Positions 6,754-55,642 of a stretch of DNA of 64,000 bases are shown one piece after another. The DNA comes from Parcubacteria bacterium C7867-006 (GTDB lineage: Bacteria > Patescibacteriota > Minisyncoccia > Phycocordibacterales > DATDWN01), in the NCBI GenBank assembly GCA_001189155.1, contig LFCP01000004.1, positions 133,618 to 197,617 of the forward strand, written 5' to 3'. Each line of letters opens with the position of its first letter. Within the stretch, counting starts at the first letter, position 1. Position numbers and translations under genes: made by a program. A model generated the notes under the pieces. The model worked only from the letters and a program-made list of their open reading frames with translations, was not told the DNA's origin and made no database searches.

Positions 6754-6790
6754 AAAAAACGATAGGCCCGTCCGAAGACGGGCCTATTTA
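6754..6790 (-). terminator. Intrinsic terminator (GGCCCGTC-cgaa-GACGGGCC plus a U run on the minus strand)
   Basis: GC-clamp hairpin followed by a T run; it closes the GC-rich two-gene cassette. Confidence 0.6.
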
Positions 6791-6804
6791 GTGCCGACTA
6801 ACTG

Positions 6805-7188
6805 CTACGTGAGAAGGCGCAAGAGCTTCCTCAAACCATCGCGAAACCTCCTGCGAGTCATCCGGTCGACCGAGGTGAGTTCCTCGGGAAGTATCGTTCC
6901 GCTCACCCTCGACGAAAACGAAAAACCATGAATCCCCAGGAACCGTTCAACAGCAATGATCACTGAACGACGACACGAGCCAAGGAGTGGGTAGACCTCG
7001 ATGATCATCTTCACCTCATCCTTGGTCAGACCCTTTGCGACTCGGTAGGGACTGAAGAACATGTGAAGCACTCCAGCCTCCTTCTTGGAGAGCCGATAGC
7101 GCTTCCTGTAGCGATCCAGAACACCGTCTTGCGCGTTCCGGAGTCTTGCTTCCGAAAATTTCTTCAACTTGATCACTCGCTCCTCCAT
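6805..7188 (-). CDS. Hypothetical protein (GC-rich cassette A, downstream gene)
   Basis: 127-aa ORF in a segment of about 55% GC; it overlaps the upstream ORF by 1 nt. Confidence 0.4.
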   Translation of the reverse strand: MEERVIKLKKFSEARLRNAQDGVLDRYRKRYRLSKKEAGVLHMFFSPYRVAKGLTKDEVKMIIEVYPLLGSCRRSVIIAVERFLGIHGFSFSSRVSGTILPEELTSVDRMTRRRFRDGLRKLLRLLT

Positions 7189-7189
7189 T

Positions 7190-7540
7190 CTAGCTCTGAA
7201 TCTGCCCGACTTCAGCAGCCATGGCCTCCTCGTGTTTCCTCATCTCATCGGCTGCTGCTCGGAAGAACACCTTCAGGCCATCAGGATCCTTCTCCTCGCG
7301 AATCTCATCAGCAACCCAGGAGAGATCGCTCGACGAAAGCCCGAGATCCGGCAGAGCAGTCTTTCCGCTCTTCAGGATTTCTCTAGCTTTCTCGAAACGT
7401 TCCCTTCTCGCATGTAATTCACGACGAGCCAGCCTGAGACCTCCGGGAAGGAACTCGTTCAGGTAGGTGCGCACGGCCTTGCCCACACACATGTGAGCCA
7501 CTCCGCGAAGCAACTCATCTGTTAGTTGGTTGTCGCTCAT
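7190..7540 (-). CDS. Hypothetical protein (GC-rich cassette A, upstream gene)
   Basis: 116-aa helical ORF in GC-rich DNA. Confidence 0.4.
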   Translation of the reverse strand: MSDNQLTDELLRGVAHMCVGKAVRTYLNEFLPGGLRLARRELHARRERFEKAREILKSGKTALPDLGLSSSDLSWVADEIREEKDPDGLKVFFRAAADEMRKHEEAMAAEVGQIQS

Positions 7541-7639
7541 TTGGTACCCCCGGACACAACTATATAATTATCAAAACATAAATCAAGTATTAATTTAACC
7601 TTGATTTCAAATCACTCTGAATAAGTTATAATACCTCCT

Positions 7640-8200
7640 ATGCAAACATCAATCATTATCCATGGTATGCCATCAAAACAGGAATACCTGAACCCCGAGT
7701 TCCCTTCTGCATCAAATGCACATTGGTTCCCTTGGATACAAAAACAACTAACAATTAAAGGTATTTTGGCTCAAACTCCAGAAATGCCAGAGCCATATGA
7801 CCCTGACTATAAAAAATGGAGTGAGGTTTTTGAACAATTCAAATTAAATCAAGACACAATACTCATCGGACATAGTTGTGGAGGTGGATTTCTTGTTAGA
7901 TGGCTTGGCGAACACAAGGTAAAAGTCGGAAGGGTCGTGCTTGTTGCACCATGGATAGATCCTAAACACGAATACCCTAAAATGTTTGACTTTGAAGCGG
8001 GAGATATTTCTGACAGAGCTGACAGCGTGCATCTGTTTATATCTTCGGATGATGATAAAGAAGAGCTAGATTCAGCTGAAATTTTAAAAGCTAAAATTTC
8101 AAATCTTAAAGTACATCATTTCAACGACAAAGGTCATTTTATAACAGACCACATGAAGACTAATGAGTTTCCAGAATTGCTCGAGATCGTTTTAAGTTAA
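7640..8200 (+). CDS. Alpha/beta hydrolase (YdeN/RBBP9-like serine hydrolase)
   Basis: GHSCGG nucleophile elbow; 186 aa. Confidence 0.55.
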   Translation: MQTSIIIHGMPSKQEYLNPEFPSASNAHWFPWIQKQLTIKGILAQTPEMPEPYDPDYKKWSEVFEQFKLNQDTILIGHSCGGGFLVRWLGEHKVKVGRVVLVAPWIDPKHEYPKMFDFEAGDISDRADSVHLFISSDDDKEELDSAEILKAKISNLKVHHFNDKGHFITDHMKTNEFPELLEIVLS

Positions 8201-8217
8201 CTTGCTATAATACCCTA

Positions 8218-8727
8218 ATGGAATCAGCCCCAAAACTATTTAATCCCGAAACAAGTCCCCTCCGCGAAGCTTATGAACTACTGGGAGCAACAACCCCACT
8301 AGAGCTACACCGTCTTTATAGTGAACAAGACCAGATACTAATGAAGTCTGGTAAGTGGGATTATGAAAATCCAGACCTTGTAGTTAACAGAGTGAAAGAA
8401 ATTTTAGAATCAGTTAAACCTGGAGAACTGACAGAAGATGAAATGGAGTGGAGAAACGAAATACTTTGGTTCTGGTATCATCACGCTATTAGCTGTGCTA
8501 TCGGAAGATACAAAGACAAAGAAGCAGCTAAAAAATATTCTGCACACGCATTGGCAATTCAATCAGAAAATCATCCTAACAAAATTACTAAACTCTTGGA
8601 TTTATTAGTAAACGACAAACTTGAAGAAGCAGAAGCTTGGGCAAAAGCAATACAAGAAGAACCAGAGAAAGAAACTGCGCAATTTTTATTAGAGGAATAT
8701 AGATCTGGAAACTTTTTTCTAAACTAA
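8218..8727 (+). CDS. Hypothetical protein
   Basis: 169-aa ORF in native AT-rich composition. Confidence 0.4.
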   Translation: MESAPKLFNPETSPLREAYELLGATTPLELHRLYSEQDQILMKSGKWDYENPDLVVNRVKEILESVKPGELTEDEMEWRNEILWFWYHHAISCAIGRYKDKEAAKKYSAHALAIQSENHPNKITKLLDLLVNDKLEEAEAWAKAIQEEPEKETAQFLLEEYRSGNFFLN

Positions 8728-8728
8728 C

Positions 8729-9175
8729 ATGCTCCCACTCGAAATATTCTACATTTATTTCTCTCCATATACAGCACATGCAATCGAAATCGATGGGGTT
8801 GTCTATCCTACTCTCGAACATGCATATCAGTGCGCAAGATACACTGACCCCAAAATAATTGCTGAAATAATTTCAGCAAAAAGCCCAGTCAAAGCTTGGA
8901 AGGCTTCTTCAAAATATAAACACCTGCAAATACCTGAATTCAAAACTGGAGAACACAAATTAAAAATTATGGAAAAGTTAATGAGACTGAAAACAGAACA
9001 ACATGAGGAAATACAAAAAGCTCTCATTGACTCTGGAGATTTAGAAATAGTAAAACATATCGTGACTCCTCCACCAGGAGATAGTTTCTGGGACGATGGT
9101 GAAGATGGTAAGGGGCTAAACCATATAGGCAAAATCTGGATGAAAATAAGAGAAGGACTCATTGACGCGACATAA
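8729..9175 (+). CDS. NADAR (YbiA-like) domain protein
   Basis: VYPTLEHAYQCARY and FWDDGEDGKGLNHIGKIWMKIRE match the NADAR/DUF1768 pattern. Confidence 0.6.
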   Translation: MLPLEIFYIYFSPYTAHAIEIDGVVYPTLEHAYQCARYTDPKIIAEIISAKSPVKAWKASSKYKHLQIPEFKTGEHKLKIMEKLMRLKTEQHEEIQKALIDSGDLEIVKHIVTPPPGDSFWDDGEDGKGLNHIGKIWMKIREGLIDAT

Positions 9176-9232
9176 TTTAAGTGTTAATTTAACGAACAGA
9201 TTTGCCCTACCTACCTGGGCAGAAAGGATCCG

Positions 9233-9508
9233 ATGAATCAGCGGGCTATCAGAAAGCTTCCATTTCCACCGGCGAGTCACTTCACATTGGAAATGGTCAG
9301 GCAGATCAAGGCAATCCCTGATGAGGAAATCAGTTACTCCGAACAAGAGATTGTCTGGATGGAACTGGCAATTCAGAATCTTGAGTACATGATTGCCTGT
9401 GCGAAATCACTCGGCATCAAGACGACCGAGATGGATGAGCACAAGGCTCTGTACGAGGCAGTCATTACCAAGAACAATAACCTGACCGCCTCAGACCGCT
9501 CACGCTAA
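9233..9508 (+). CDS. Hypothetical protein (GC-rich cassette B)
   Basis: 91-aa ORF; AAAGGA RBS 4 nt upstream; raised GC. Confidence 0.4.
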   Translation: MNQRAIRKLPFPPASHFTLEMVRQIKAIPDEEISYSEQEIVWMELAIQNLEYMIACAKSLGIKTTEMDEHKALYEAVITKNNNLTASDRSR

Positions 9509-9555
9509 ATTTTGCGTGGGCGGTCAATTGTTTTATATTTTGCTATAATAACTCT

Positions 9556-9930: not shown

Positions 9931-10212
9931 ATGAAAAATAAAAACATAGTTATTTCTCTATCAATAATATTTGCATTAGCATTAATAGGTTATTTCTTTT
10001 TTTACAACAAATCAGCACAAAATACAAAAAACCCAAACTCAACAGCAAAAATAAATATAGAAGCCGTTTGCCAAGGTGCACTAGCATATATGACATTCCC
10101 TGACTCAAAAAGTGCAGACATTTATGTAGAGGAGTGTATAGAAGGTAAACATCCAGAAGTAATAGAACGCTATAAAGCATCTTTGAATCTTGATGCTGGA
10201 GTAGCTATATAA
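9931..10212 (+). CDS. Small secreted/membrane-anchored protein
   Basis: 93 aa with an N-terminal hydrophobic segment. Confidence 0.4.
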   Translation: MKNKNIVISLSIIFALALIGYFFFYNKSAQNTKNPNSTAKINIEAVCQGALAYMTFPDSKSADIYVEECIEGKHPEVIERYKASLNLDAGVAI

Positions 10213-10248
10213 TTTAAATCTCATACAAGATTTTGGTATAATAACTAA

Positions 10249-10587
10249 ATGAAAATATTCACACATTTGCTAGTTTCTACACTAGCCATAATCATAGCAA
10301 CATACATTATTCCTGGAGCAACGATAACTCTCTCAAGTGCTATCGTGCTAGCGGCTGTTCTAGGAGCAATAAATGTTTTCATCAAACCAGTAGTAAAAAT
10401 CATCGCCCTACCGATCACAATACTAACGCTTGGATTCTTTTCTCTCGTTATAAATACTCTATTTATTATTCTAGCTTCAAAAATAGTTCCTGGTTTCTAT
10501 GTATCAGGTTTCTGGCCAGCCTTTTGGTTCTCAATTGCTCTATCACTCATAAACGCTTTTTTCAATCTATTCCAAGATAAAGATTAA
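10249..10587 (+). CDS. DUF360/YvlD-like 4-TM membrane protein (phage holin family IV-like)
   Basis: 112 aa with four TM segments and the YvlD pattern. Confidence 0.45.
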   Translation: MKIFTHLLVSTLAIIIATYIIPGATITLSSAIVLAAVLGAINVFIKPVVKIIALPITILTLGFFSLVINTLFIILASKIVPGFYVSGFWPAFWFSIALSLINAFFNLFQDKD

Positions 10588-11385: not shown

Positions 11386-11396
11386 TTAGTCTCGAA

Positions 11397-11489
11397 TTAC
11401 TTTTTTCCCACCTGACATCCACAAGAACATGTACCGTCTTCATTTGTATGAACGTGACCACAAGCTTCGCACTTCATTTCATCTGACAT
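11397..11489 (-). CDS. 30-aa Cys-rich peptide MSDEMKCEACGHVHTNEDGTCSCGCQVGKK (mini zinc-ribbon-like); not in the ORF track
   Basis: Two Cys knuckles (CxxCGH and CxCGC); ends at the shared terminator. Confidence 0.3.
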   Translation of the reverse strand: MSDEMKCEACGHVHTNEDGTCSCGCQVGKK

Positions 11490-11574: not shown

Positions 11575-11603
11575 TTGACATTATAGTTAAAATGTGATAT
11601 TAT
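11575..11603 (+). promoter_or_regulatory. Sigma70-like promoter TTGACA-17-TATTAT with extended TG
   Basis: Consensus -35 and -10 boxes read directly, 40 nt upstream of the GT2 start. Confidence 0.55.
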
Positions 11604-11642
11604 TGTACTAGAAGAACATTGAAACCTTTCACAGGAGAGACG

Positions 11643-12653
11643 ATGTCTACGACTGAAGGCCTAGAGGCCCCGCTCGTCACGATACTCGTCCCCTGCTATC
11701 AGTACGGACGGTATCTACGCAATTGTCTGGAAGGAATTTTCGCCCAGACAATCATCGACCAAATATCGGTTGAAATCATCGTCATCAACGATGCATCAAC
11801 CGACAACACTGACGCTGTTATGCGTGAGTTCACGGACCCGCGTATTCACTACATCCGCCACGACAGAAACCGTGGACTCTGCTACACACTGTCAGAAGGA
11901 CTCACCCTCGCAAGAGGTAAGTACTTTACTCGGATTGACGCGGACGACAGATGGAAACCTCACTTTCTGGAAGTAACACTTCCTGAGCTTGAGAGATACC
12001 CTGATGTTGCTCTCGTCTTCGGTGATGTTGCCCATGTTGATGAACAAGGAAACATCATCAACGAGGAAAGTACAATCGCTCGCTCACTTGAGGTTCACGG
12101 CGATCGTGATTTCAAGGGAGACAGATTTCTTTCACAAGTCGGCGAATGCACAATCGGCACCGCTGGTGTGATAGGAAGAACCGAAGCTTGGCGTAAGGGC
12201 CTACCTTTCCCCAAATGCTTTACTTGGGAGTCCCCGTCTGACTGGTGGCTGAACATCATGGCCATCAGAGATGCAGACGTGTACTACAAGAAGGGTATTC
12301 TTGGGGAATACCGCATGCACAGTGCGAGTATGACCCACCAACAAGGTAGTGTTGATGCGGTCGATATTGAACAGACCACCATCGGCGCTATCAATGAAGC
12401 GTTTAGCGGGGTAAATCTGAAAAGAGAACACCGCCTTGCGCGACGCATGATCTACGCCAACGCATGGACCACCCTCGGGAATATCAATTTCGAAAAAAAC
12501 CGAGGTAAAGATTCGAGGAGGTGCTACGCCAACGCAGTGCTCTGGCGACCGGACTATGTTTTAAGAAAGTCCATCGCTCGACACTTCCTGTCGAGTCTCC
12601 TGCCTCGGAAACTGTACGAGAAAATAAAGAAAGGGGTGAAGAAAATGTTCTGA
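11643..12653 (+). CDS. Family 2 glycosyltransferase (GC-rich cassette C)
   Basis: ILVPCYQ...IIVINDASTDNT...RIDADD GT2 motifs; AGGAGAG RBS 4 nt upstream; about 52% GC. Confidence 0.75.
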   Translation: MSTTEGLEAPLVTILVPCYQYGRYLRNCLEGIFAQTIIDQISVEIIVINDASTDNTDAVMREFTDPRIHYIRHDRNRGLCYTLSEGLTLARGKYFTRIDADDRWKPHFLEVTLPELERYPDVALVFGDVAHVDEQGNIINEESTIARSLEVHGDRDFKGDRFLSQVGECTIGTAGVIGRTEAWRKGLPFPKCFTWESPSDWWLNIMAIRDADVYYKKGILGEYRMHSASMTHQQGSVDAVDIEQTTIGAINEAFSGVNLKREHRLARRMIYANAWTTLGNINFEKNRGKDSRRCYANAVLWRPDYVLRKSIARHFLSSLLPRKLYEKIKKGVKKMF

Positions 12654-12687
12654 GCCGACCAACGCTAACGCGAAGGTCGGCTTTTAC
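12654..12687 (+). terminator. Intrinsic terminator (GCCGACC...GGTCGGC-TTTT)
   Basis: GC hairpin plus a T run directly after the GT2 stop. Confidence 0.6.
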
Positions 12688-12697: not shown

Positions 12698-13720
12698 TTA
12701 TTTATCGCCTATTATATTTACTAAAGCAAGTTCCAATGGAAGAGAAGGTATGTATGCACCGTTTGTTTTTTCATATGCGGTTAGAAGTTCAACCAAATCA
12801 GATGAAGTTAGATTCCCCTCGCCTTTTGCTAGAGAACCAACAAACTCAAATTCTTTTTCTGACAAATCATCTTTTATGATATTTCCAGCATTAAACCGAA
12901 CAAGTAGAACCGCTCGTGCAGTGTGGAGAATAAGTTTTAAGAAAACAGACATATCTATGTTTTGACTTACTGATTTTTTAACCGCATCTAGTCCTAAATT
13001 TAAATCTTTATTAACTATTGAAAAAACTACATCATGAACCATGTCGATAGCTGGAGCTCCTGTAACAAGACGAACTTCCTCCTCACTTATAGTTTTATTT
13101 TTAGAGTATGCTAAAACTTTTTGAAGTATTCCGAGTGTATCCCGAAAAGAACCGTCACCGAGCAAAGCAATAAGCTCTGCTGATGCATCATCCACTACTG
13201 AACCTTCTTGTTTTGCAATACTGGTTACAACTTTTTTCAAAACATCTTGAGATGGTTTTTTGAATGTGTATGTTTCGCAACGGGACAAAACTGTTTCTGG
13301 AATTTTGTGAGTTTCTGTTGTAGCTAGAATAAAAACAACATGAGATGGTGGCTCCTCCAAAGTTTTGAGAAGTGCGTTTGATGCTGATTTTGAAAGCATA
13401 TGAACCTCGTCCAAAATATAAACTTTATATTTTGATTCAAAAGGCAGTGTAAAAACAGAATCATTTAGATTTCTAATATCTTCTACACTAGTGTTTGATG
13501 CCGCATCTATTTCATAAATATCATTTTTACTTGTTCCTATAGCTGCAGCAAATATTCTTGCTACAGAAGTTTTTCCCGTTCCCCGTGTTCCAGAAAAAAG
13601 GTATGCGTGGGAAATTTCTCCAGATTTTGCTTCTGCTTCTAGAACTTTAACTATGTGGTCCTGACCAACAACTTCAGAAAACTTACTTGGGCGGTATTTT
13701 CTATATAGTGCTTCTGACAT
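12698..13720 (-). CDS. dnaX: DNA polymerase III subunit gamma/tau (short form)
   Basis: GTRGTGKTS Walker A and the clamp-loader box; 340 aa. Confidence 0.85.
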   Translation of the reverse strand: MSEALYRKYRPSKFSEVVGQDHIVKVLEAEAKSGEISHAYLFSGTRGTGKTSVARIFAAAIGTSKNDIYEIDAASNTSVEDIRNLNDSVFTLPFESKYKVYILDEVHMLSKSASNALLKTLEEPPSHVVFILATTETHKIPETVLSRCETYTFKKPSQDVLKKVVTSIAKQEGSVVDDASAELIALLGDGSFRDTLGILQKVLAYSKNKTISEEEVRLVTGAPAIDMVHDVVFSIVNKDLNLGLDAVKKSVSQNIDMSVFLKLILHTARAVLLVRFNAGNIIKDDLSEKEFEFVGSLAKGEGNLTSSDLVELLTAYEKTNGAYIPSLPLELALVNIIGDK

Positions 13721-13829
13721 AGTAAATAGTATATCTTATTGTGAGTTTGAGACAAAACATATAATTAAGTAATAATTGGAAAAGTGCCTCCTGGACAGAG
13801 GCACTTTTTCGTGCAGAACGAAGAACAAA

Positions 13830-14150
13830 TTACCCCTTTCGGTGGCCGTTGTCATGGCGATTGTTATCCAGACCCAGATCGATTCGCCTGGACCGAGGCA
13901 GTCGAGGGGCCTCGGTCTGAGGATGACCAAGTGGCTTGACCTTGCTGAGCTCTTGAAGCCCAGCAAAGATCAACTTCCTGACTTCATGACGGGAGGGTTC
14001 GTGCTCGAACATCTTCTTGAACTCCCTGAACAGGAATTCGGGAGTCTCACTGACCAACTTCTTCTGACAGTCCTCGCACACTCCATAATGGCCACTGGTG
14101 AACTTCGGGTCCTCATACAAATGATTACCCTCAACACACATCAAAACCAT
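13830..14150 (-). CDS. Hypothetical protein (GC-rich cassette D; Cys/His-containing)
   Basis: Start preferred at MVLMCVEGNH with GGGGG 5 nt upstream; contains a GHYGVCEDC motif. It overlaps a plus-frame ORF judged less likely. Confidence 0.35.
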   Translation of the reverse strand: MVLMCVEGNHLYEDPKFTSGHYGVCEDCQKKLVSETPEFLFREFKKMFEHEPSRHEVRKLIFAGLQELSKVKPLGHPQTEAPRLPRSRRIDLGLDNNRHDNGHRKG

Positions 14151-14761
14151 TGGAACCCCCTCTACACAATCCTTACTTGAGAATATCATATTCAAAAAAC
14201 ATGAGTCAATTTTTTTATATAAAAAAACGAGCCGAAGCTCGATGTAAAGACCCGACTCCACCAATTATGAATCTGGCCAGGATGCAAAATTGGTGGAGTG
14301 GAACGGACTTACCTATCCGTATTACCAAAAACTAGGATAGGTCGGTTACTGATACAGACGCTAGAGATCTCCGTGACTCGCTAGCATCATATCGAAGGTG
14401 AAGGTCCGCTATCCTTCAGGGTGGGAGGACCCTGGGGATTTTTGAGCGATCACCACACAAAAACCAGTGATGTTCTACAACAACGGAGATTGTCGTCACC
14501 ACCAGTTTTCCGCTCAACAAAATACATTATTAAATAATTATTGTCAAATAAAAAAACCGTCACATTGACGGCAAATTTCAATGGCATAGTGCCCCCGTCA
14601 ATAAGGTGACGAGCCATTATTGACGGGGGCAAGAGTAACAAAGCTACTCTCTTGTGCCTGATGTGGGTGATTTCTGGTGCCCTGACGGAGTTGAGGACTA
14701 ACACTATCAACACCACACCTTCGAGGAGACATAGTACGAGAAAATAATATTTTGTCAAATT

Positions 14762-15760
14762 TTATAAACCTTTTATATATTCCTCTATTATTTCCCCCAC
14801 TTCATTTGAATCCTTTGCCTCCATCAGTTTCATTCGAAGTTCCTTTGCCCCATCCCATCCATGAACGTAAGCTTTATAATGTTTTTTCATTATTGCAAAA
14901 CTTTTGTGTGAAAGAGTTTTTTCAAAAAGTTTAGTGTGTTCAACCATTACCCGAAGTCTATCTGGTATTGAAACATCCTCTCTGCTAGTTGTTTTACTAA
15001 ACAACCAAGGGTTTCCGAAAATAGCCCTGCCGAGCATAACACCATCACAGCCAGTCTCGAGAACTTTGGCTTCAGCATCTTTCAAATCAATGACATCCCC
15101 GTTTCCAAAAATTAGCGTCTCACTTTTATTACCGAGTGAGTCAACAAAACTATCACGTATTTCAACAGCTCTTTTTATATGCTCCCATCTTGCAGGAACC
15201 AAAGACATTTCTTTTCTTGTCCGAGCATGGATAGTAATAACAGCAGGATTTGTTTCTAATAGTGCTGGCAACCAATTCTCAAGTTCGTTTTTGTTATAAC
15301 CAATTCTGGTTTTTACACTTACAGGAATATTTTTACCATTCTTACTTGCGCCTCTTTTTGCGGCCAGAATTATTTCTTGTGCAAGTTTTAGGTTTTTTAT
15401 TAGTCCAGCTCCAGCCCCCTGCTTCTCTATGCTTTTATCTGGACAACCCATATTTATATCTATCCCATCAAAACCTAAATCAACTGCAAGTTCAGCAGCC
15501 TTTTCCATTATCTCTGGTTTGCTCGTAAAAAACTGTGCAACTATAGGTCTCTCTGCTTCTGTATATGACAGATCTTTTATTAAAGCATCATACCCACCAA
15601 GAAAAAGTCCGTCAGCAGAAACGAACTCAGTCCATGTAACATCAGGTTTTCCATATTTTGAAATAATACTTCGAAAAGCCGAGTCAGTTACATCCGCCAT
15701 AGGAGCAAGAACCATTATCCCCTTAGGTTTATTATTTTTTAATTCTTTCCAAAAATTCAT
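14762..15760 (-). CDS. dus: tRNA-dihydrouridine synthase
   Basis: VLAPMADVTD and IDINMGCP motifs. Confidence 0.85.
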   Translation of the reverse strand: MNFWKELKNNKPKGIMVLAPMADVTDSAFRSIISKYGKPDVTWTEFVSADGLFLGGYDALIKDLSYTEAERPIVAQFFTSKPEIMEKAAELAVDLGFDGIDINMGCPDKSIEKQGAGAGLIKNLKLAQEIILAAKRGASKNGKNIPVSVKTRIGYNKNELENWLPALLETNPAVITIHARTRKEMSLVPARWEHIKRAVEIRDSFVDSLGNKSETLIFGNGDVIDLKDAEAKVLETGCDGVMLGRAIFGNPWLFSKTTSREDVSIPDRLRVMVEHTKLFEKTLSHKSFAIMKKHYKAYVHGWDGAKELRMKLMEAKDSNEVGEIIEEYIKGL

Positions 15761-15761: not shown

Positions 15762-16562
15762 CTATATATTTAAAAATAGACTAGCTAGTGTAACCGGCCC
15801 AACTCCACCAGGAACTGGTGTGACTAGAGAAGCTTTTTCAAAACAACCAGGGTCAATATCGCCAACTATCTTTCCAGCTTGTTCGCTAGTCCCAGCGTCT
15901 ATCAAAACCACTCCATTTTTTATCATATCTGGCTTAATCATATGAGGAGATCCTGCACCAGAAATAATAACATCTGCAGACATTATCAAACTTTTGCTTA
16001 AATTGGAATCTGTATTTTTATCTATAGTATTAAAATAGATACCTTTTAGTGTAAGCATATTTTGAACCGGTTCACCCACCAACCGACCATTACCAATAAC
16101 TAAAATATTTTTATTATTCAAATCCACATTATAAAAATCTAAAATCTCAGAAACAGCTTTTGCGACAGGTGGGGTCTTATTTAATCTCCCATTTTTATAT
16201 TCATTTTTTGCTTTTTCACTCAGGATATCTATATCTAACTCAACTGGAACCAGATTTAAAACATCTTGAACTGGGAAACTTGAAGGTAGAGGCAACTGTA
16301 TAACCACCCCGGCGATATCTTGTTCCACTATACTGCTAACGATCGAAGAAACTTCTTCAAAGGACAGATTTTCTCTATCTTTAAAAACTCGAGTTGGAAT
16401 ACCTAAAGACTCAGCAAATCTACATTTCATTTTTATAAACTGTTTACTAGCCAAATCATTTCCAAATATGATAAAACAAACCTCTTTTTTGGGTTTGTTT
16501 TTTAAATTATGGGCAATATCTTTCTTTAATTTATCCGAAACCAATTTCCCATCAGCTATCAT
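15762..16562 (-). CDS. folD: Bifunctional methylene-THF dehydrogenase/cyclohydrolase
   Basis: FolD pattern GAGSPHMI...PGGVGP. Confidence 0.85.
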   Translation of the reverse strand: MIADGKLVSDKLKKDIAHNLKNKPKKEVCFIIFGNDLASKQFIKMKCRFAESLGIPTRVFKDRENLSFEEVSSIVSSIVEQDIAGVVIQLPLPSSFPVQDVLNLVPVELDIDILSEKAKNEYKNGRLNKTPPVAKAVSEILDFYNVDLNNKNILVIGNGRLVGEPVQNMLTLKGIYFNTIDKNTDSNLSKSLIMSADVIISGAGSPHMIKPDMIKNGVVLIDAGTSEQAGKIVGDIDPGCFEKASLVTPVPGGVGPVTLASLFLNI

Positions 16563-17446
16563 ATTTTTTCTCCTTTTAGTTTATAAAACAATTTGTTTCC
16601 ATATCGTAGATCAATATACTCTATCGGTAAATCAGAATTTGTACTAGTTGATAAAGCTGGAGTTTTTAACAAAGACTCAAGATTTTTTGAAATTTCTGTT
16701 AGAGGCTTTTTTGTATCAAAGAAAATTTTACCGCCCCCAGAAACCACCAGAGAAAAATCCCCCTCATCTTCAGCAATTAAATAGAGAGGTCTAATAGACA
16801 TCGCTTTGATATCAGAAATAAAATGTACTATTTCTTGAAACTTTGTTGATGATGAAATGTAATAGTTTCCTATAGGAGTAGATGTTGAAACCAAACCATA
16901 GAATTTAAAATACGCATCTCCAGAAAAATATGGGGCTTCAGAAAAAATGGTACTATTCTGATCTATAAAAAAACACTTTTGATATTCTGAATCTTTCTCA
17001 ACTGGAGTTGTTGTTGAAATCTCAACCTGGCCTGGTAATTTATCACACCAAATAGCAAAAGGTTTTCTCTCCTCTACCGTTACAACCATAGTCCTCAACC
17101 CGTCTAAACCAATACTAATAGTGTCTATTCTTTTAAAATTTTCTTTCAAATAAACAGAAAGTTGTTTTTTGGGATACCAAAAACTGCTATTTTTTGGAAA
17201 AAGCCAAAAATAAGAATCTTTCATATAAGAAAAAGACTTATCTGAAATGTCTGACTCAGTTACCAACACTCCTCCTTTCAATACAACTTTTGAAATCCGA
17301 ACTTCTGGTCTGTGTGAAATATATGAAGACAGACCTATAATAAAAATAATTAAAAAAGAAATTATAGAATACTTTATTATTCTTTTTTTTCTTTTTCTTC
17401 TGAGAAACTCCTCATGCGAAGGTAGTGTTGAATTATTGATTGGCAT
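16559..17446 (-). CDS. ftsQ: Cell division protein FtsQ/DivIB-like (POTRA)
   Basis: N-terminal TM anchor plus POTRA-like region; 4-nt overlap with folD. Confidence 0.55.
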   Translation of the reverse strand: MPINNSTLPSHEEFLRRKRKKRIIKYSIISFLIIFIIGLSSYISHRPEVRISKVVLKGGVLVTESDISDKSFSYMKDSYFWLFPKNSSFWYPKKQLSVYLKENFKRIDTISIGLDGLRTMVVTVEERKPFAIWCDKLPGQVEISTTTPVEKDSEYQKCFFIDQNSTIFSEAPYFSGDAYFKFYGLVSTSTPIGNYYISSSTKFQEIVHFISDIKAMSIRPLYLIAEDEGDFSLVVSGGGKIFFDTKKPLTEISKNLESLLKTPALSTSTNSDLPIEYIDLRYGNKLFYKLKGEKI

Positions 17447-44949: not shown

Positions 44950-45825
44950 ATGAACTACTATCAAACTCCCAGTGGTGGACTGATTAGCAAGGTAATACTG
45001 GTGGTTCTCCCGGTTGCATCATTTGCGCTTGCGTACGTGATGTATCGGAGGAACCATCCAACTTCTCCGAGGTTCAAATATCGTAGTAGCCGAAGTTCGA
45101 AAGACTTCGCCGCTGCTGTGATGATGCCGTTTGGCCTGGCCATCGGCGTCGGAATCCTCTGGGGAGTTGTGTACTTCCTGGCTTGGGGGCCTGGAATTCT
45201 GCACTACTTCTCTTTCCCTATCTGGGGAAAAGCGGAAGCTAGGATGAGCACTCCAACCAACAGTGGCTTCGTCGACAAAAACGAAGTCCACCGTCGGACG
45301 GGAGAGTTCTGGTATTCCAACTTGCCACCGACCGAGGCCAAGGAGATGCTCGACATCGCCACGGAAGAGTCACATTTCCAGCAATTCAACACTGATGGGA
45401 GTGTCTTCACCGGCGTGGACGACCCAGCCGACACGGGCGTGATGCAAATCAACGTCCGTGAGAACCAGAAAGACCTGATAGCGTGGGGGCTCAACGTCAA
45501 CACTCTCGAAGGAAATCTGGAAGCGGCCAAAAGGCTTCGTCAGAAATACGGCACGAAGCCTTGGCAACGGACGGTGGATAAAATCAAAAACCGTCCGTCG
45601 CAGATAATCACCATCAAGGTGCCAAAGGAAGGTCGCAGTGAAAGGTTTACCCCCGACGGCAGATTCTGCCAGGGTCAAACCGATCTTCCAGTCACCGTAT
45701 GGGACGACAAAGGTAGGAGCCACCCAATGACTCCGACCAGCGTTCCAACTGTTCCGTCGTTGTGGTATGAGTACTCCACTCCAAGTGGAGGCTCACTCCC
45801 AACGATCACCATTTCATGCAGGTAA
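44950..45825 (+). CDS. Membrane-anchored lytic transglycosylase (SLT/lysozyme-like domain) (cassette K)
   Basis: Two TM helices, then ATEESHFQQFN...TGVMQINVRENQ...LEAAKRLRQKYG, which matches the ES...GLMQI...AY SLT signature. The start is uncertain because the in-frame hydrophobic stretch upstream lacks an ATG. Confidence 0.5.
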   Translation: MNYYQTPSGGLISKVILVVLPVASFALAYVMYRRNHPTSPRFKYRSSRSSKDFAAAVMMPFGLAIGVGILWGVVYFLAWGPGILHYFSFPIWGKAEARMSTPTNSGFVDKNEVHRRTGEFWYSNLPPTEAKEMLDIATEESHFQQFNTDGSVFTGVDDPADTGVMQINVRENQKDLIAWGLNVNTLEGNLEAAKRLRQKYGTKPWQRTVDKIKNRPSQIITIKVPKEGRSERFTPDGRFCQGQTDLPVTVWDDKGRSHPMTPTSVPTVPSLWYEYSTPSGGSLPTITISCR

Positions 45826-45831
45826 CGCAAA

Positions 45832-45866
45832 GCGCGGAGACCCTTCGGGGCCCTCCGCGCTTTTTT
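45832..45866 (+). terminator. Intrinsic terminator GCGCGGAG...CTCCGCGC-TTTTTT
   Basis: Read directly; it closes cassette K. Confidence 0.65.
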
Positions 45867-45886: not shown

Positions 45887-46195
45887 TTATAGTTTTAGAA
45901 AATTCGTTGCACCTGAAGAATTTATATCAGAAGATGTTATACCGAATGTTCCCATAACAAAACGTATAATCCCAAAAACAGAAAACATAATAACCATACC
46001 TGCGATCCCCCACATTATTGCACTTCTTGACTCTCCTCTAGTTTTATCAGCAGAATTTAAATCTTGATTTAGGAAATTGAATACTCCGTAAACAAAATAC
46101 AAAAACGATACCGCAAACATTAGTAACAAAAGTGGATTGATAATCAAATCAATTACTTTGTTTAGGAAAGGTACAATAGATAATGATGAGGACAT
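45887..46195 (-). CDS. Small two-TM membrane protein, VirB2/TrbC-pilin-like paralog 1 (no signal peptide)
   Basis: Shares the core FxYGxFNFL...K..G....IMWGIAGMVIMFSVFG with the five upstream paralogs. Confidence 0.4.
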   Translation of the reverse strand: MSSSLSIVPFLNKVIDLIINPLLLLMFAVSFLYFVYGVFNFLNQDLNSADKTRGESRSAIMWGIAGMVIMFSVFGIIRFVMGTFGITSSDINSSGATNFLKL

Positions 46196-46210
46196 AATTT
46201 GTCCGAAAAA

Positions 46211-46555
46211 TTAAAGACCTAGAACCTGTGGAGGTTGAATAGCTCCATTGTTAGTTACTCCCAAGTTTGTTTGCAACCAGTAAACTAGACCGTAGATAGA
46301 AAGCATCACTGCAATAGCAACAACACCCCAAATCATCTGATTTCGGCCAGCTTCCTGTGCCTTTGGATCTCCTGCAGCTCGTAGAAATACAACAAGTCCC
46401 CAGAAGAAGTAAATGATAGCTAAGGCGAACATTATTGGAATAATTCTTCCTATAATTTGTCCAAAATCCTGAACTAGAGCAGAAAGGTTACCCAATGTCT
46501 GAGCAAAAGTTAGAACTGGAGCCAAAGCTAAAGCTGAATAAATAATTTTCTTCAT
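46211..46555 (-). CDS. Secreted two-TM small protein, VirB2/TrbC-pilin-like paralog 2
   Basis: Signal peptide, then IPIMFALAIIYFFWGL...K...G..MIWGVVAIAVMLSIYG. Confidence 0.4.
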   Translation of the reverse strand: MKKIIYSALALAPVLTFAQTLGNLSALVQDFGQIIGRIIPIMFALAIIYFFWGLVVFLRAAGDPKAQEAGRNQMIWGVVAIAVMLSIYGLVYWLQTNLGVTNNGAIQPPQVLGL

Positions 46556-46641
46556 TTTTTTAAATTAACTATTAAATAACTAATGTAATAATTGTAGTAC
46601 AAAATCAATAAAAAACAAGTATATTGTGGATAAAGAAAATA

Positions 46642-47043
46642 TTAATTTCCAAATGTTGGTAAAGTATAACCACCTTGTTGTGGTGTATACAAACCAGAAG
46701 AACTACTAGTTCCATTTGGTGAGATACCGATTAGATTACCTATAGCCATTAAGATTCCATAAATTGAAAACATCACAAATAACGCAATAACTCCCCAAAG
46801 CATTTTTTTCTTTCCATCTTCTCGTGTTTTATCACTAGCCGCATCATTTAGAATAAACTGCGCTCCACCCCAAAAGAAAAAAGCCATTGCAAGACCAAAC
46901 ACAATTCTAATTCCAAAATTAATAAGTCCACCAAAATCCACAAGTAATGTTCTGAGACTGTCTAGAGCAGCAAAAGAGACAACCGGTAAAACCAGAGCCA
47001 AAGATGATGCTAAATAAATCCTTTTGTTTAATTTCATATTCAT
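46642..47043 (-). CDS. Secreted two-TM small protein, VirB2/TrbC-pilin-like paralog 3
   Basis: FFFWGGAQFI...K..G.KKMLWGVIALFVMFSIYG core. Confidence 0.4.
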   Translation of the reverse strand: MNMKLNKRIYLASSLALVLPVVSFAALDSLRTLLVDFGGLINFGIRIVFGLAMAFFFWGGAQFILNDAASDKTREDGKKKMLWGVIALFVMFSIYGILMAIGNLIGISPNGTSSSSGLYTPQQGGYTLPTFGN

Positions 47044-47056
47044 ATTATTTTAATAA

Positions 47057-47512
47057 TTATGGTGCCGGAACCCCACTTGGTAAATTAAAAGTACTTGTAT
47101 TCTGACCACTGTTTGTTGAAGTTGGTATAAGTGGAATAGTTGATGAATCCCCTATCTCCAAATCTCGAGCTATCAATCCTATGATAGCTCTTACAGAAAT
47201 AAGAACAAACAGCACAACAACCCCCCATATCATATAATTTTTACCCTTCTGCACATCTGCTGGACTACCAGAGTTTAGAATAAACCTCGATAGACCCCAG
47301 AAAAATGCTAAGAAACTTAAAGCAAAAAGTATCGGAATAATAAGAGAGATAACATTTATTATATGGTAGATACTACAACCAAAATCAACACCTATTAAAG
47401 AAAAACTACTAGTGTCGCAAGCTGTTACTCCAGAAGTAAACTGAGAAAAAACAAAAGTTGGAAACATTAGCACTATCAGAATGAGAAACTTTAAATGTTT
47501 TTTTGTATTCAT
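47057..47512 (-). CDS. Secreted two-TM small protein, VirB2/TrbC-pilin-like paralog 4
   Basis: Start chosen at MNTKKHL; FFWGLSRFI...K.YMIWGVVVLFVLIS core. Confidence 0.4.
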   Translation of the reverse strand: MNTKKHLKFLILIVLMFPTFVFSQFTSGVTACDTSSFSLIGVDFGCSIYHIINVISLIIPILFALSFLAFFWGLSRFILNSGSPADVQKGKNYMIWGVVVLFVLISVRAIIGLIARDLEIGDSSTIPLIPTSTNSGQNTSTFNLPSGVPAP

Positions 47513-47520
47513 ATTTTTAT

Positions 47521-47925
47521 CTAGTTCATAAGAGCTCTGACTGTATTTTCGACAACAACTGAAATAGCAGCCGCTCCCAGAAGTATACCTGCACCAATAA
47601 GTGACCATAAAAGGTTTTTCTTTGCGTCATCAATTTTCTTTGGGTTACCTTGAGCAAGAACAAACTGAAAACCTGCCCAGACAATCCAAACCACAACAGC
47701 AACAGCAGCTATTGGCATAACTATATTTGACAATATAACTCTAATCAAAGCCATAAGGTCATTACCTCCATTAAAAGGATTATCGATTTTCGCACCTATC
47801 TGTGTTGAACCTGGAGTTGGTGATTGTGTTGTTGATGGAGCTGGCATTGTTTGAGCCAACAAAATTACCGGGGCAAGCATCACAAGAAAACCCATAACAG
47901 AAAATATTTTTTTTATTTTATTCAT
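47521..47925 (-). CDS. Secreted two-TM small protein, VirB2/TrbC-pilin-like paralog 5
   Basis: Signal peptide; VVVWIVWAGFQFV...K..KKNLLWSLIGAGILLG core. Confidence 0.4.
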   Translation of the reverse strand: MNKIKKIFSVMGFLVMLAPVILLAQTMPAPSTTQSPTPGSTQIGAKIDNPFNGGNDLMALIRVILSNIVMPIAAVAVVVWIVWAGFQFVLAQGNPKKIDDAKKNLLWSLIGAGILLGAAAISVVVENTVRALMN

Positions 47926-47934
47926 AAATTTTTA

Positions 47935-48399
47935 TTAACCTAATGGTACCAAATTTTTAACATTGTTATTCAATAAACTATTTGTAATCAGTGTAACTAT
48001 GAGCCAAGCTGCTAACATAAAAAATATTCCCCAAGCAACCTTAACAAGCCTACCGTTTGCCCTTGCTCTAGCCCCCGGATTACCTCCAGATGTCATATAC
48101 TCAAAACCAACATATGCAATTATTACAACAGTAAAAGCTAGGGCAAGAGGAATAGCTATTCCAAAAAATTTCTTAACCGCATATATCAAATCATTAAAAC
48201 CACAATCCCCATAGATAGTGGTGCCGTTAGGACCAGGCCTACTACATTCATATGTTATACCAGTACTCTGACCACCTCCAGTTGTGTCTGTACTTCCACC
48301 TGGAGGAACCATTACTTGTGAATATGAAAAAACAGGTAGAGAAATAAATAAAGCTATCAAAAAGAATTTTAATATTTCTGATTTTATTTTATTTTTCAT
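47935..48399 (-). CDS. Secreted two-TM small protein, VirB2/TrbC-pilin-like paralog 6
   Basis: Signal peptide; G/T-rich linker; AYVGFEYM...G....VKVAWGIFFMLAAWLI core. Confidence 0.4.
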   Translation of the reverse strand: MKNKIKSEILKFFLIALFISLPVFSYSQVMVPPGGSTDTTGGGQSTGITYECSRPGPNGTTIYGDCGFNDLIYAVKKFFGIAIPLALAFTVVIIAYVGFEYMTSGGNPGARARANGRLVKVAWGIFFMLAAWLIVTLITNSLLNNNVKNLVPLG

Positions 48400-53270: not shown

Positions 53271-53912
53271 TTAAATAGCTTCAAGAATAACGATCTCACC
53301 TTCTTTACCCTCAACATCTTTTCTTTTTATGGTTAATTTATCTATAGGTTTTACTCCCTCTTCTCCAGATTCTTTCAAAAACTTTTTAAGAGCATCTTTT
53401 TCGCCAACATCTCCAAAGTGGCTAGGTATTATGATTTTTGGTTCAAACTGTACAGCTAGTTTGTGAGCAGTGGCTGAATCTAGAACATTATCTCCTCCAA
53501 TAGGAACAAACAAAATATCAACTGACTCTAAACCTTCTTTTGCTTCAGAAGAAAGCTTTTCATCAGAAAGAGCACCGAGAAAACCGAGATTAATCCCTTC
53601 AAGTGAAACTGTATATACAGTATTTATATGCTCTTTACCTCCGTATGTAGAACCAGACAAAAAACCCTTTATGAAAACACCCTGAACTTCGTACTCGCCA
53701 GGACCTTGGATAACAAAGGACTCTTTTTCTCCACGAGAAGTCTGCTCAACTCCGTTGTGCTCAGGTGAGTTTATAGAGACCAAAGTTATATCGCTTCCGA
53801 ACTTTGTTGATTTAAGTTTTGAATCTTTTGAAATAGGATTTACAGCAATAGTTGTATCTCCGAATGAAACTTTGAAAAAATCTGCTCCGTGGTATGTGAT
53901 TATCATACCCAC
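53271..53912 (-). CDS. MBL-fold metallo-hydrolase (UlaG-like)
   Basis: Beta-lactamase-fold pattern with terminal PSHFGD. Confidence 0.55.
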   Translation of the reverse strand: MGMIITYHGADFFKVSFGDTTIAVNPISKDSKLKSTKFGSDITLVSINSPEHNGVEQTSRGEKESFVIQGPGEYEVQGVFIKGFLSGSTYGGKEHINTVYTVSLEGINLGFLGALSDEKLSSEAKEGLESVDILFVPIGGDNVLDSATAHKLAVQFEPKIIIPSHFGDVGEKDALKKFLKESGEEGVKPIDKLTIKRKDVEGKEGEIVILEAI

Positions 53913-54068
53913 AGTGTAGCAAAAAACCTATACATTTCAAATGTATTGCAAAATGGGCATTTTTGGGTATACTTACTCTCTGTATATTAATAGCCGCAAT
54001 AGGACTTAACCTCGACCCATCCGGACACAGTAGTTAGGGATTGAAAAGCCTGGAGCACATATACTAAA

Positions 54069-55199
54069 ATGGCAAAAGCACAAGTTATTGAGGAGGAAAT
54101 AATGGAGGAGGCTGAAGTAAGTAAAAAGACTAGCACTATGGACAAAGTCCTAGATGCATCATCAAATCCCCCATCTATCGACGACGTAGTCGAAGGTAAA
54201 GTTATAGGTATAGAGAAATCAGCAGTTTATATAGATATACCACCTTTTGGAACTGGTATTATTTTTGGACGTGAGTATATAAATGCACGAGACATTATAA
54301 AGAAAATTAACGTCGGAGACTCTGTTGCAGGTAAGGTTGTTAGTATTTCTAACAAAGACGGTTACATAGAGATATCTCTAAAGGAAGCTAGACAAGCTCT
54401 AATCTGGTCAGAAGCAGAGGATGCTATCAGAGACAAGAAAATCTTTGAACTTCCTGTACAGGAAGCAAACAAAGGAGGACTTATCCTTTCATGGCAAGGT
54501 ATTTCTGGATTCCTTCCAGCTTCACAGCTTAAAACAGAGCACTATCCACGAGTTTCAGACGGAGACAAAGATAGAATTCTAGAAGAGCTAAAGAAACTAG
54601 TTGGTCAGAAAATCTCTGTTGCTATAATAGGCGCTTCTCCAAAAGAAGGTAAACTTATCTTCTCAGAGAAGAACCCTGAACAGAAAAACAAAGACTACAT
54701 AATCGGTAAATACCAGCTTAACGACGAAGTTATGGGTGAAGTTACAGGAATGGTAGACTTTGGTGTATTCGTAAAGCTTGAGGAAGGTCTAGAAGGTTTA
54801 GTACACATTTCAGAGATAGACTGGGCACTAGTTGAAAACCCAAAACTTCTATTCCATATCGGAGAGAAAATCAAAGTAAAAATTATTGAAATCAAGGACG
54901 GAAAGATATCTCTATCTATCAAGGCTTTGAAGGAAAATCCTTGGAAAGACGCAGAAAAGAAATACAAAAAGGATGACGTTGTTGAGGGTGTTGTTATTAA
55001 ATTCAACAAACATGGAGCTCTTGCTTCTATTGAAGAAGGTATAGCAGGACTCGTTCACATATCAGAGTTTGGATCAGATGAGAAACTTCATGATGCACTA
55101 GAACTTGGGAAAAACTACAAGTTCAAAATAACAATGTTTGATGCAAAGGAACAAAAAATGACACTTTCATTTGTTGATCCTAATAAAAAAGCTGAGTAA
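54069..55199 (+). CDS. rpsA: 30S ribosomal protein S1 (four S1 domains)
   Basis: Repeated S1 OB-fold motifs (GxV.....fGvFV.l..g..GLvHiSE). Confidence 0.85.
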   Translation: MAKAQVIEEEIMEEAEVSKKTSTMDKVLDASSNPPSIDDVVEGKVIGIEKSAVYIDIPPFGTGIIFGREYINARDIIKKINVGDSVAGKVVSISNKDGYIEISLKEARQALIWSEAEDAIRDKKIFELPVQEANKGGLILSWQGISGFLPASQLKTEHYPRVSDGDKDRILEELKKLVGQKISVAIIGASPKEGKLIFSEKNPEQKNKDYIIGKYQLNDEVMGEVTGMVDFGVFVKLEEGLEGLVHISEIDWALVENPKLLFHIGEKIKVKIIEIKDGKISLSIKALKENPWKDAEKKYKKDDVVEGVVIKFNKHGALASIEEGIAGLVHISEFGSDEKLHDALELGKNYKFKITMFDAKEQKMTLSFVDPNKKAE

Positions 55200-55223
55200 T
55201 TAAAAAATATTCAGATAGCAGAT

Positions 55224-55253
55224 AGGGCGGCCCGTGAGGACCGCCCTTTTTGT
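55224..55253 (+). terminator. Intrinsic terminator GGGCGG...CCGCCC-TTTTT after rpsA
   Basis: Read directly. Confidence 0.6.
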
Positions 55254-55270
55254 GTTAATCGAGTGAGGAA

Positions 55271-55591
55271 TCAATCGTTTTCGCGTTCGAACTCGTCGTC
55301 CTTATGATCCTTCCGACGCTTTTTCTCGACCGACAGTTTCTTTCGCTCGAGGATCTGGACGAGTTGTTCCGCCATCTCCTTGTGGTGTGATGGCAAACGA
55401 CTCGGCCAACTCTCAAGCCTAGAATGTACGAGAGCGATGAGCTCGTCGTGACCGGTCCGAATATCGAGCCTCATCATGAACCTCATGAAGTGGAATTCGA
55501 TACCCGTATCGATAGAAGCCGTTCGCATCTCCTTGATGAACGCCTCCGAAATCGAAAGCTCCTCGTCATCCTCAGACACTCGCTGCGCCAT
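55271..55591 (-). CDS. Hypothetical protein (GC-rich cassette L, between rpsA and pth)
   Basis: Start chosen at MAQRVSEDDEE with a GAAGGAG RBS 5 nt upstream; a TTGACT box is upstream; acidic/basic helical protein. Confidence 0.4.
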   Translation of the reverse strand: MAQRVSEDDEELSISEAFIKEMRTASIDTGIEFHFMRFMMRLDIRTGHDELIALVHSRLESWPSRLPSHHKEMAEQLVQILERKKLSVEKKRRKDHKDDEFEREND

Positions 55592-55642
55592 ATGTACTCC
55601 TTCAGTCTGCCAGAGTAACACTTTAATCGATTTAGTCAATTT

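Follow-up and report, generated by a model that had tools for sequence, protein, structure and literature searches.

Genes of odd composition are normally taken to be recent horizontal transfers that are fading into the composition of their host. The elements described here are 12 GC-rich segments, labelled c1 to c12 and called cassettes below, in a 64,000-nucleotide (nt) stretch of the genome of Parcubacteria bacterium C7867-006 (GenBank assembly GCA_001189155.1, contig LFCP01000004.1, positions 133,618 to 197,617 of the forward strand; hereafter the window, in whose numbering positions are given). They hold 14 open reading frames (ORFs) in 12 transcription units, spread over 49 kb, and are intergenic among dprA, topA, serS, miaA, rpmG, rpsA, pth and dnaX. 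The source is a metagenome-assembled genome from a Hanford aquifer sample, with a reported GC content of 36% (PMC4508563). Homologues of one native solute-binding protein bear the names Paceibacterota, Zambryskibacteria or Minisyncoccia.

Like phage morons, the cassettes are autonomous promoter-ORF-terminator units of deviating composition that lie between conserved genes and disrupt none of them. Morons, however, sit in lambdoid prophages, whereas the surroundings of the cassettes are chromosomal housekeeping genes; the cassettes have no PHROG match except for a generic family 2 glycosyltransferase (GT2) and no relatives in IMG/VR (scanned with c1b, c6 and c7), are GC-richer and not AT-richer than their background, and keep their positions across species. 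Integron gene cassettes are also small single-gene modules that often encode orphan proteins, but here attC, intI, attI and an array are all missing, each unit has its own -35/-10 promoter, and the hairpins 3' of the cassettes are unrelated terminators and not attC repeats. The enterobacterial ORFan islets of Daubin and Ochman, which are said to be short, fast-evolving, AT-rich and thought to derive from phages, resemble the cassettes in being short, fast-evolving, taxonomically restricted genes between core genes; the compositional shift is the opposite one, and the architecture of promoter and ribosome-binding site in the cassettes is distinct. The T-DNA of Agrobacterium, whose genes bear the expression signals of the recipient cell, serves as an analogy only: the cassettes likewise have signals and a composition that set them apart from their own genome, and a cluster of genes for pilins like those of type IV secretion systems (T4SS) lies beside one of them; they are dispersed and do not form a single bordered segment, neither a relaxase nor an oriT nor border repeats were seen, and there is no evidence of transfer. 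In the GeneMarkS-2 study, atypical (putatively transferred) genes average 8-9% and usually have a lower GC content than the host, and its 'group C' (leaderless) is marked by a Pribnow box at a distance of 6-8 nt from the start (PMC6028130). The native genes of the window carry this Pribnow signature, and compositionally atypical genes make up approximately 11% of the window, near the quoted 8-9%; the cassettes differ from group C atypical genes in being approximately 16 points higher in GC, in being led by Shine-Dalgarno (SD) sites and in having kept this state across speciation.

A search of the accessible literature turned up no account of the pattern, and the source-genome paper is silent on it. 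We consider it probable that the cassettes are long-lived, clade-restricted accessory transcription units with a composition that is maintained or renewed within the clade.

Composition and expression signals of the cassettes

The GC content is 37.0% for the window overall, 47.2-55.6% for the 12 segments and 35.2% for the remainder. A sequence-only reading of the window had described expression-ready modules of foreign-looking composition between housekeeping genes, and this description was correct. The contrast in GC content on which it drew is real, but the background is at 35%, not at the 25-30% judged by eye, and only some of the segments exceed 52%. The check that it proposed on the GC content of third codon positions (GC3) separates the two classes completely: mean GC3 is 0.595 ± 0.044 (range 0.49-0.66) in the 14 cassette ORFs and 0.247 ± 0.046 (range 0.18-0.39) in 58 native ORFs, without overlap (Mann-Whitney U maximal, p=8e-9). 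Four-fold sites are near-uniform in the cassettes (A.19, C.28, G.25, T.28) as opposed to A.42, C.08, G.07 and T.44 in the natives, and the ratio Arg/(Arg+Lys) is 0.53 and 0.28, respectively. Since the cassette four-fold sites are near-uniform, with G and C raised equally, there is no preference for C-ending codons, and translational selection for such codons was rejected. Assembly chimerism was also rejected, as identical junctions are seen in independent JGI, NCBI, ENA and Logan assemblies.

The codon-position pattern (GC1>GC2<GC3), the conservation of the ORFs and ratios of nonsynonymous to synonymous divergence (dN/dS) of 0.04-0.23 against orthologues identify the segments as protein genes. 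The same evidence bears on the alternative that the islands are structured non-coding RNA genes with spurious ORFs. Such RNA genes are typically GC-rich in AT-rich genomes, the tRNA regions of the window show similar GC peaks, and a stretch beside c4 (14228-14760) holds two promoter-to-terminator units without credible ORFs; with SD sites as well as ORFs kept in relatives, Pfam domains in c3 and c11a, and an Rfam scan of the whole window that gave nine tRNAs and nothing else at the gathering threshold or at E<=1, we regard this explanation as very improbable. An all-against-all comparison revealed no paralogy among the cassette proteins.

The two classes also differ in their expression signals. 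Cassette ORFs have a median predicted anti-SD duplex energy of -7.4 kcal/mol, as against +0.4 in the native genes, and energies of -6 kcal/mol or below are found in nine of the 14 cassette ORFs against one of the 58 natives (p=2e-7). The other cassette ORFs have weaker AAGGA or GAGGGGG sites or, in the case of c1a, translational coupling. The SD sites ahead of cassette ORFs and their lack among native genes are both as the sequence-only reading had it. In related loci an SD site is present in 13 of the 31 ORFs with a GC3>=0.45 and in 6 of the 78 others. An rRNA gene from which the anti-SD could be read was sought in one of these loci, L092, and none was found there.

A TTGAnn -35 box lies 16-18 nt from a -10-like hexamer in nine of the 12 cassette units, and the leaders are 17-71 nt long. 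The site at 11575-11603 that had been singled out as a textbook promoter (TTGACA-17-TATTAT with a TG) is the best-scoring site of its region. Strict hairpin and T-run terminators follow 6 of 11 cassette units compared with 7 of 58 natives, and a separate terminator prediction adds c2; a hairpin and T run had been claimed for every cassette, which holds in the strict sense for these units, the remaining ones having GC hairpins with interrupted T runs. Among the natives, a TATAAT-like box ends 3-11 nt before the start codon in 26 of the 58 genes (6.3% at random positions), with a modal distance of 6-7 nt and a TG extension in 12 of the 26, whereas none of the 14 cassette ORFs has a -10 box abutting its ATG. 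The native genes have few -35 boxes and instead have TGn-extended -10 boxes (TGnTATAAT, for example, at genes 8218, 9556, 10249, 26624 and 30788). Judged by these motifs, the native genes match the group C leaderless organisation, with a putative Pribnow box near the start and SD sites essentially absent; no report of a leaderless organisation in Parcubacteria was found in the searchable literature.

We propose that the AT-rich core genes would be driven by -10 or extended -10 promoters lying directly against the start codon, to give leaderless mRNAs, or would belong to SD-less operons, and that the cassettes would constitute a second gene class of autonomous units, each with a -35/-10 promoter, an SD leader and an ORF that in most cases is followed by a GC-rich intrinsic terminator. 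The units would act as insulated, SD-dependent expression modules alongside the leaderless core. One small genome of the candidate phyla radiation (CPR) would then combine two cleanly separated architectures, an AT-rich leaderless core and GC-rich, SD-led accessory genes, which bears on how bacteria that are largely rid of SD sites partition translation initiation.

The features of the cassettes are as follows, with the strand in brackets and protein lengths in amino acids (aa); c1, c4, c5, c7, c9 and c12 are on the minus strand.

c1, 6754-7633 (-): bicistronic unit; GC 0.53-0.56, GC3 0.61-0.66
c1 promoter, 7586-7559 (-): TTGATT-16-TATAGT
c1b, 7190-7540 (-): 116 aa
c1a, 6805-7188 (-): 127 aa; start 1 nt past the c1b stop
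c1 terminator, 6787-6762 (-)
c2, 9176-9525 (+): ORF 9233-9508, 91 aa; weak SD AAGGA; GC3 0.62
c2 terminator, 9494-9525 (+)
c3, 11575-12687 (+): GT2 glycosyltransferase 11643-12653, 336 aa; SD AGGAG; terminator to approximately 12687
c3 promoter, 11575-11603 (+): TTGACA-17-TGnTATTAT; score 11/12
c4, 13785-14209 (-): ORF 13830-14150, 106 aa, CxxC present; SD GAGGGGG; GC3 0.64
c4 promoter, 14209-14180 (-): TTGACT-18-TATTCT
c4 terminator, approximately 13812-13785 (-)
c5, 18990-19320 (-): ORF 19023-19268, 81 aa; SD AGGAG; upstream -35 TTGACA; downstream GC hairpin
c6, 20200-20556 (+): ORF 20234-20500, 88 aa; SD GGAGG; TTGAAA-17-TATAAA; downstream GC hairpin
c7, 28240-28870 (-): ORF 28299-28814, 171 aa; SD AAGGAG; downstream GC hairpin
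c8, 29785-29984 (+): ORF 29828-29929, 33-aa hydrophobic peptide MLEILGKSVLALVAFWPFWVTPLAIVFACRRTQ; SD AGGAGG
c9, 30340-30690 (-): ORF 30420-30626, 68 aa; SD GGAGG; TTGACT-17-TAACAT; terminator approximately 30400-30350
c10, 39450-39797 (+): ORF 39495-39707, 70 aa; TTGACA-17-TACTGT; SD AGGAG; terminator; GC3 0.56
c11, 43420-45866 (+): promoter TTGACT-17-TAGAAT; terminator 45830-45866
c11a, 43503-44834 (+): SPFH/Band_7 protein, 443 aa
c11b, 44950-45825 (+): membrane protein, putative lysozyme-like domain; frame open from 44557
c12, 55225-55640 (-): ORF 55271-55591, 106 aa; SD AAGGAG; TTGACT (55639-55634) with TATTAT

The two ORFs of c1 had been described as overlapping; both are present, but they lie in tandem on the minus strand and do not overlap. 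As a small two-gene unit of 116 + 127 aa with a 1-nt gap, c1 has a layout that fits type II toxin-antitoxin systems, and it has no Pfam, PHROG or PADLOC match. The small cassette ORFs outside c3 and c11 have no match to PHROG, PADLOC or Pfam, and those other than c1 and c8 are orphans. The c3 protein matches Pfam Glycos_transf_2 (PF00535) with 101.7 bits against a gathering cut-off of 23.3, and c11a matches Band_7 (PF01145) with 30.8 bits, above the cut-off of 23.6. The start of c4 was re-assigned to the ATG at 14150. The AF2 model predicted for c7 has a pLDDT of 88 and no neighbour in PDB. The terminator of c8 is GCCCCGTG...CACGGGGC, followed by a T run, and that of c12 is shared convergently with rpsA. 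As a single sequence c11b has no match in Pfam or PDB; a profile of its family (6 members) weakly matches C-type lysozymes (E ~1e-3) across a conserved EES...D.GVMQIN motif. The c11b frame is open for 390 nt 5' of its first ATG (44557-44950), overlapping the end of c11a, and this open stretch codes for a clear transmembrane helix, IVAVIAIITLIIAKIATSVF; a frameshift may fuse it to c11a, translation may start at a non-canonical codon, or the sequence may contain an error. Between c3 and a native gene for a 230-aa membrane protein lies a JGI-called, 30-aa, Cys-rich, zinc-ribbon-like ORF (11386-11489, minus strand).

Cassette slots in the sister species and other relatives

A sister species (GCA_964616425.1 and GCA_020049755.1; loci L002, L003 and L014) is syntenic with the window from 6.2 to 30.4 kb at 74-84% nucleotide identity. 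The native proteins of the two are 70-95% identical, with a synonymous divergence (dS) of 1.1-2.3, which is near-saturated; cassette proteins are mostly 34-67% identical, compared with the 70-95% of the natives. Cassettes c3, c5, c6, c8 and c9 are found in the matching slots of the sister, where their GC3 is 0.52-0.60. The sister orthologue of c3 is 62% identical with a dS of 1.8, those in L011 and L013 are 81% and 53% identical, and the homology across the four genomes extends from the -35 box to the terminator T-run. For c5 the identity is 67%, dN/dS 0.23, and GC3 0.58 in the window and 0.52 in the sister. The c6 orthologue is 97% identical, with a dS of 0.32 compared with 1.25-1.46 for the flanking dprA and topA, and c8 is represented by a 34-aa peptide whose promoter, SD site and terminator are likewise conserved. 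Two orthologues were missed by BLASTP. That of c9, a 58-aa ORF of 34% identity in the slot next to rpmG, was recovered by Smith-Waterman alignment against shuffles (score 77 versus 22 ± 4.6, 12 standard deviations above), and that of c7, a 131-aa ORF in the corresponding slot, by its match to the c7 family profile (E=2e-7).

The c11 pair is found in six further loci (L092, L095, L096, L098, L101 and L103), where it is GC-rich amid AT-rich neighbours and shows a protein identity of 36-72%; c11a and c11b are 36-39% identical as opposed to 57-94% for their flanks. In each of the six it lies beside a T4SS_pilin cluster. In the window this cluster consists of five tandem T4SS_pilin (PF18895) paralogues (45887-48399, minus strand), and it is kept in all related loci examined, always adjoining the GC-rich SPFH/lysozyme-like pair.

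Synteny with relatives had been proposed as a check of whether the slots are empty elsewhere. They are occupied for seven units (c3, c5, c6, c7, c8, c9 and c11), by orthologues of the same composition in the same positions, the pattern that the sequence-only reading itself had associated with ancient, vertical inheritance. The odd gene class, its signals and composition included, has endured in species between which most synonymous sites differ.

Other slots differ in their content. At the c4 slot of the sister the promoter is retained (80% over 56 nt) and an unrelated GC-rich sequence follows it, and the c12 slot, pth|rpsA, in L102 (175-384) holds a different GC-rich ORF of 69 aa that has a GGAGG site, the terminator being the same. 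A relative, L099, carries c1 at 88.6% nucleotide identity over 6753-7633 of the window with different flanks. In L011 and L013 homologues of c2, 83 aa long, GC-rich and with a GGAGG site, directly follow the GT2 gene, so that c2 and c3 are neighbours there, whereas 2 kb separate them in the window. Further GC-rich ORFs that have a GGAGG site are carried by L003 (12960-13115, 51 aa, slot topA|relA) and by L101 (12390-12728, 112 aa, downstream of a 2-hydroxyacid dehydrogenase gene); the slots of these extra ORFs in L003, L101 and L102 are empty or otherwise filled in the window. Among the AT-rich genes, murB (25502-26584, minus strand), which lies between parB and murA, is missing from the sister's syntenic site, as are the native-type genes at 9931-10587 and 7640-9175, and gene turnover is therefore not confined to the GC-rich cassettes.

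Source and possible maintenance of the composition

The presence of seven of the 12 units in the same slots, with the same GC3, in species at a dS > 1 (1.1-2.3 for native genes) largely refutes the explanation that the sequence-only reading had put first, namely repeated, relatively recent uptake from a high-GC donor, for example the host of an episymbiont, by independent intergenic insertions that are now ameliorating. These units (c3, c5, c6, c7, c8, c9 and c11) do not show the pattern of recent transfers, whose closest homologues are distant and which are absent in sisters. The searches for a donor gave 11 homologues of c11a among 5.8 billion (5.8e9) proteins and 5 other clusters of the c7 family among 1.84 billion (1.84e9) representatives, with no donor homologue of either. 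All six c11a neighbourhoods that were read adjoin the Parcubacteria-type T4SS-pilin cluster, and the sole c11a homologue named to an organism belongs to a Parcubacteria group bacterium. The IMG/VR scans with c1b, c6 and c7 revealed no viral relatives, and scans of metagenome contigs for which c1b and an alignment of the c2 family served as queries were also empty. Few homologues, Parcubacteria-type contexts and the lack of viral relatives mean that a recent high-GC donor is not supported. Recent uptake would account for the sharp contrast in composition, the foreign-type signals (-35 boxes and SD sites), the arginine-rich amino-acid usage, the absence of c1 and c2 from the sister's site, the extra cassettes of relatives and a slight excess of third-position changes from G or C to A or T (S->W) over the reverse (W->S). 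The nearest relatives of GT2 outside the clade sit in a polysaccharide cluster of a 61% GC genome, but they are only 38% identical, and as evidence of a donor they are weak since the family is so widespread; in a scan of GTDB species representatives with the GT2 alignment the sister was the one close relative, and the next, 33% identical, came from an Acidobacteriota genome. Neutral decay after such uptake would need an ancestral GC content at four-fold sites (GC4) of 0.87-0.97 or higher. On this evidence recent uptake is unlikely; a GC-richer foreign source for some of the cassettes is possible, but it would be ancient.

The other explanation offered, an unrecognised dispersal mechanism, found no footing. 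The proposed check for border repeats was run, and the repeat search over the window gave no shared repeat family at the cassette borders; there is no integrase or transposase among the genes called in the window and no target-site duplication at the c1 junction against the sister's site, the one comparable junction, in agreement with what had been noted from the sequence. Cassettes c7, c8, c9 and c10 are near tRNAs, yet they have no integrase and are not bracketed by tRNA-end repeats. A specific form of the idea is that the units are integron-like or other site-specific mobile cassettes whose recombinase is encoded elsewhere in the genome, and it would suit their small, modular, intergenic nature, the differing c2/c3 spacing (adjacent in L011/L013, 2 kb in the window) and the differing c1 flanks in L099. 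Given that the units have no attC-like element at their borders, possess their own promoters and are dispersed and not arrayed, we give it very little credence.

Whether the composition is decaying was assessed at four-fold sites. Between window and sister the native sites are 49.7% identical with a GC4 of 0.17-0.18, which gives e^-muT = 0.22 under an F81-type model. The c3 sites (90) are 43% identical with a GC4 of 0.54 and 0.49, a divergence level like that of the natives around a different composition. Decay of c3 to the native equilibrium under neutrality would have needed a GC4 of 0.87-0.97 at the window/sister split, and L011 and L013, outgroups as judged by a native gene, have a GC-rich c3 as well. 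With one outgroup, polarised third-position changes in c3 number 50 S->W versus 39 W->S; two outgroups give 28:13, and the F81-type estimate for neutral decay at the c3 composition is approximately 3.7:1. Together these tests, which are small and model-dependent, point to a composition that is maintained or only slowly decaying. The cassettes would accordingly have a near-stationary composition of their own, with approximately 50% GC at four-fold sites compared with 17% in the natives.

Divergence is heterogeneous among the cassettes: dS is 0.32 for c6 and 0.08 for c1a versus 0.4-1.5 in the flanks, and c9 and c11 are saturated. The c3 tree groups the window with L011 to the exclusion of the sister, in conflict with the neighbouring native gene, which groups the window with the sister to the exclusion of L011. 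The heterogeneous dS and the conflicting c3 tree suggest that cassette alleles may be exchanged among related lineages. The force holding the composition apart would be selection on the units, or GC-biased recombination tied to allele exchange among related Parcubacteria, in which case the histories of the cassettes would disagree with those of their neighbours. An unsampled reservoir is a further candidate besides selection on the units and biased recombination with exchange inside the clade. In this version, alleles are repeatedly replaced by homologous recombination via the conserved flanks from a GC-richer CPR source (Parcubacteria, plasmids or phages), and the composition would mirror that source, not selection within this genome. 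It would explain the incongruent dS (c6 and c1a against the saturated c9 and c11), the c3 conflict, and the c4 and c12 slots, which retain a signal (the c4 promoter, the c12 terminator) around different bodies, and dprA is present in the organism. The same aquifer had Parcubacteria genomes of 36-56% GC (PMC4508563), and the source of most horizontal transfer into Patescibacteria is reported to be other members of that group (PMC12455944). A GC-rich genome context was, however, found for no cassette family, all recovered c11 contexts being AT-rich with a GC-rich c11, and the viral-contig scans (c1b, c6 and c7) and both metagenome scans were empty. Re-seeding from such a source is conceivable, and we hold it to be somewhat less improbable than recent uptake.

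A more speculative proposal is that the cassettes are kept GC-rich with classical signals for another expression setting. This could be a GC-richer, SD-using host reached by nucleic-acid transfer, in a T-DNA-like version in which the neighbouring T4SS-pilin, lysozyme-like and SPFH genes would serve delivery, or, more mildly, a dedicated SD-dependent regime during shutdown of leaderless translation. We rate the proposal as highly unlikely.

Several points weigh against the favoured reading of the cassettes as long-lived units of maintained composition. For the sister the comparison covers approximately 30 kb, and for the other relatives it covers short stretches. Cassettes c1 and c2 are absent at the sister's site, and this, together with the unrelated sequences in the c4 and c12 slots, means that gain or replacement does occur. 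The stationarity tests rest on one gene of useful length, c3, on parsimony with distant outgroups and on a simple F81 model near saturation, and the excess of S->W over W->S (28:13 with two outgroups) leaves room for slow decay. A GC3 shift from 0.25 to 0.6 far exceeds the known effects of GC-biased conversion in bacteria. The Arg-rich, GC-type composition, the canonical signals and the GT2 relatives at 61% GC all fit an ultimately foreign origin.

The favoured reading nevertheless accounts for slots, signals and composition being kept together: the cassettes would be mostly clade-restricted accessory genes that evolve fast as proteins. If true genome- and clade-wide, it would mean that a reduced genome maintains base composition gene by gene. 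GC3 and SD sites in combination would provide a simple marker of fast-evolving accessory genes in Parcubacteria, maybe ones of host interaction, and GC deviation alone would be a poor guide for inferring or dating transfer in CPR genomes.

Other elements of the window

The stretch at 14228-14760 (minus strand), adjacent to c4 and absent from the earlier list of segments, is GC-rich (0.42-0.47) and comprises two promoter-to-terminator units without credible SD-led ORFs:

unit A (-): promoter TTGACA-16-TACTAT, 14758-14731, to terminator 14572-14556; transcript 169 nt, folding z-score -5.1
unit B (-): promoter TTGACA-17-TATTTT, 14547-14519, to terminator 14241-14228; transcript 285 nt, folding z-score -5.9

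The units cannot be aligned with the sister and have no Rfam match (a focused scan of 13700-14800 gave nothing credible); they are candidates for novel small RNAs.

A second element, of approximately 170 nt, is intergenic at 17462-17632 (minus strand), upstream of a 295-aa gene at 16559-17446. It is GC-enriched and 93% identical to the sister, versus 74-84% for coding DNA, with a folding z-score of -3.7, a possible compensatory change and no Rfam match, and we list it as a candidate for a cis-regulatory leader or a riboswitch-like RNA.

A conserved element of approximately 36 nt, TTTCGTGAGGACTCGAAACCCGATTGAGATATTTTG, occurs at 28047-28082, 38832-38866 and 39227-39262. It lies 55-70 nt 3' of the tRNA genes Leu-CAA, Lys-CTT and Leu-TAG, in constant orientation to the tRNA.

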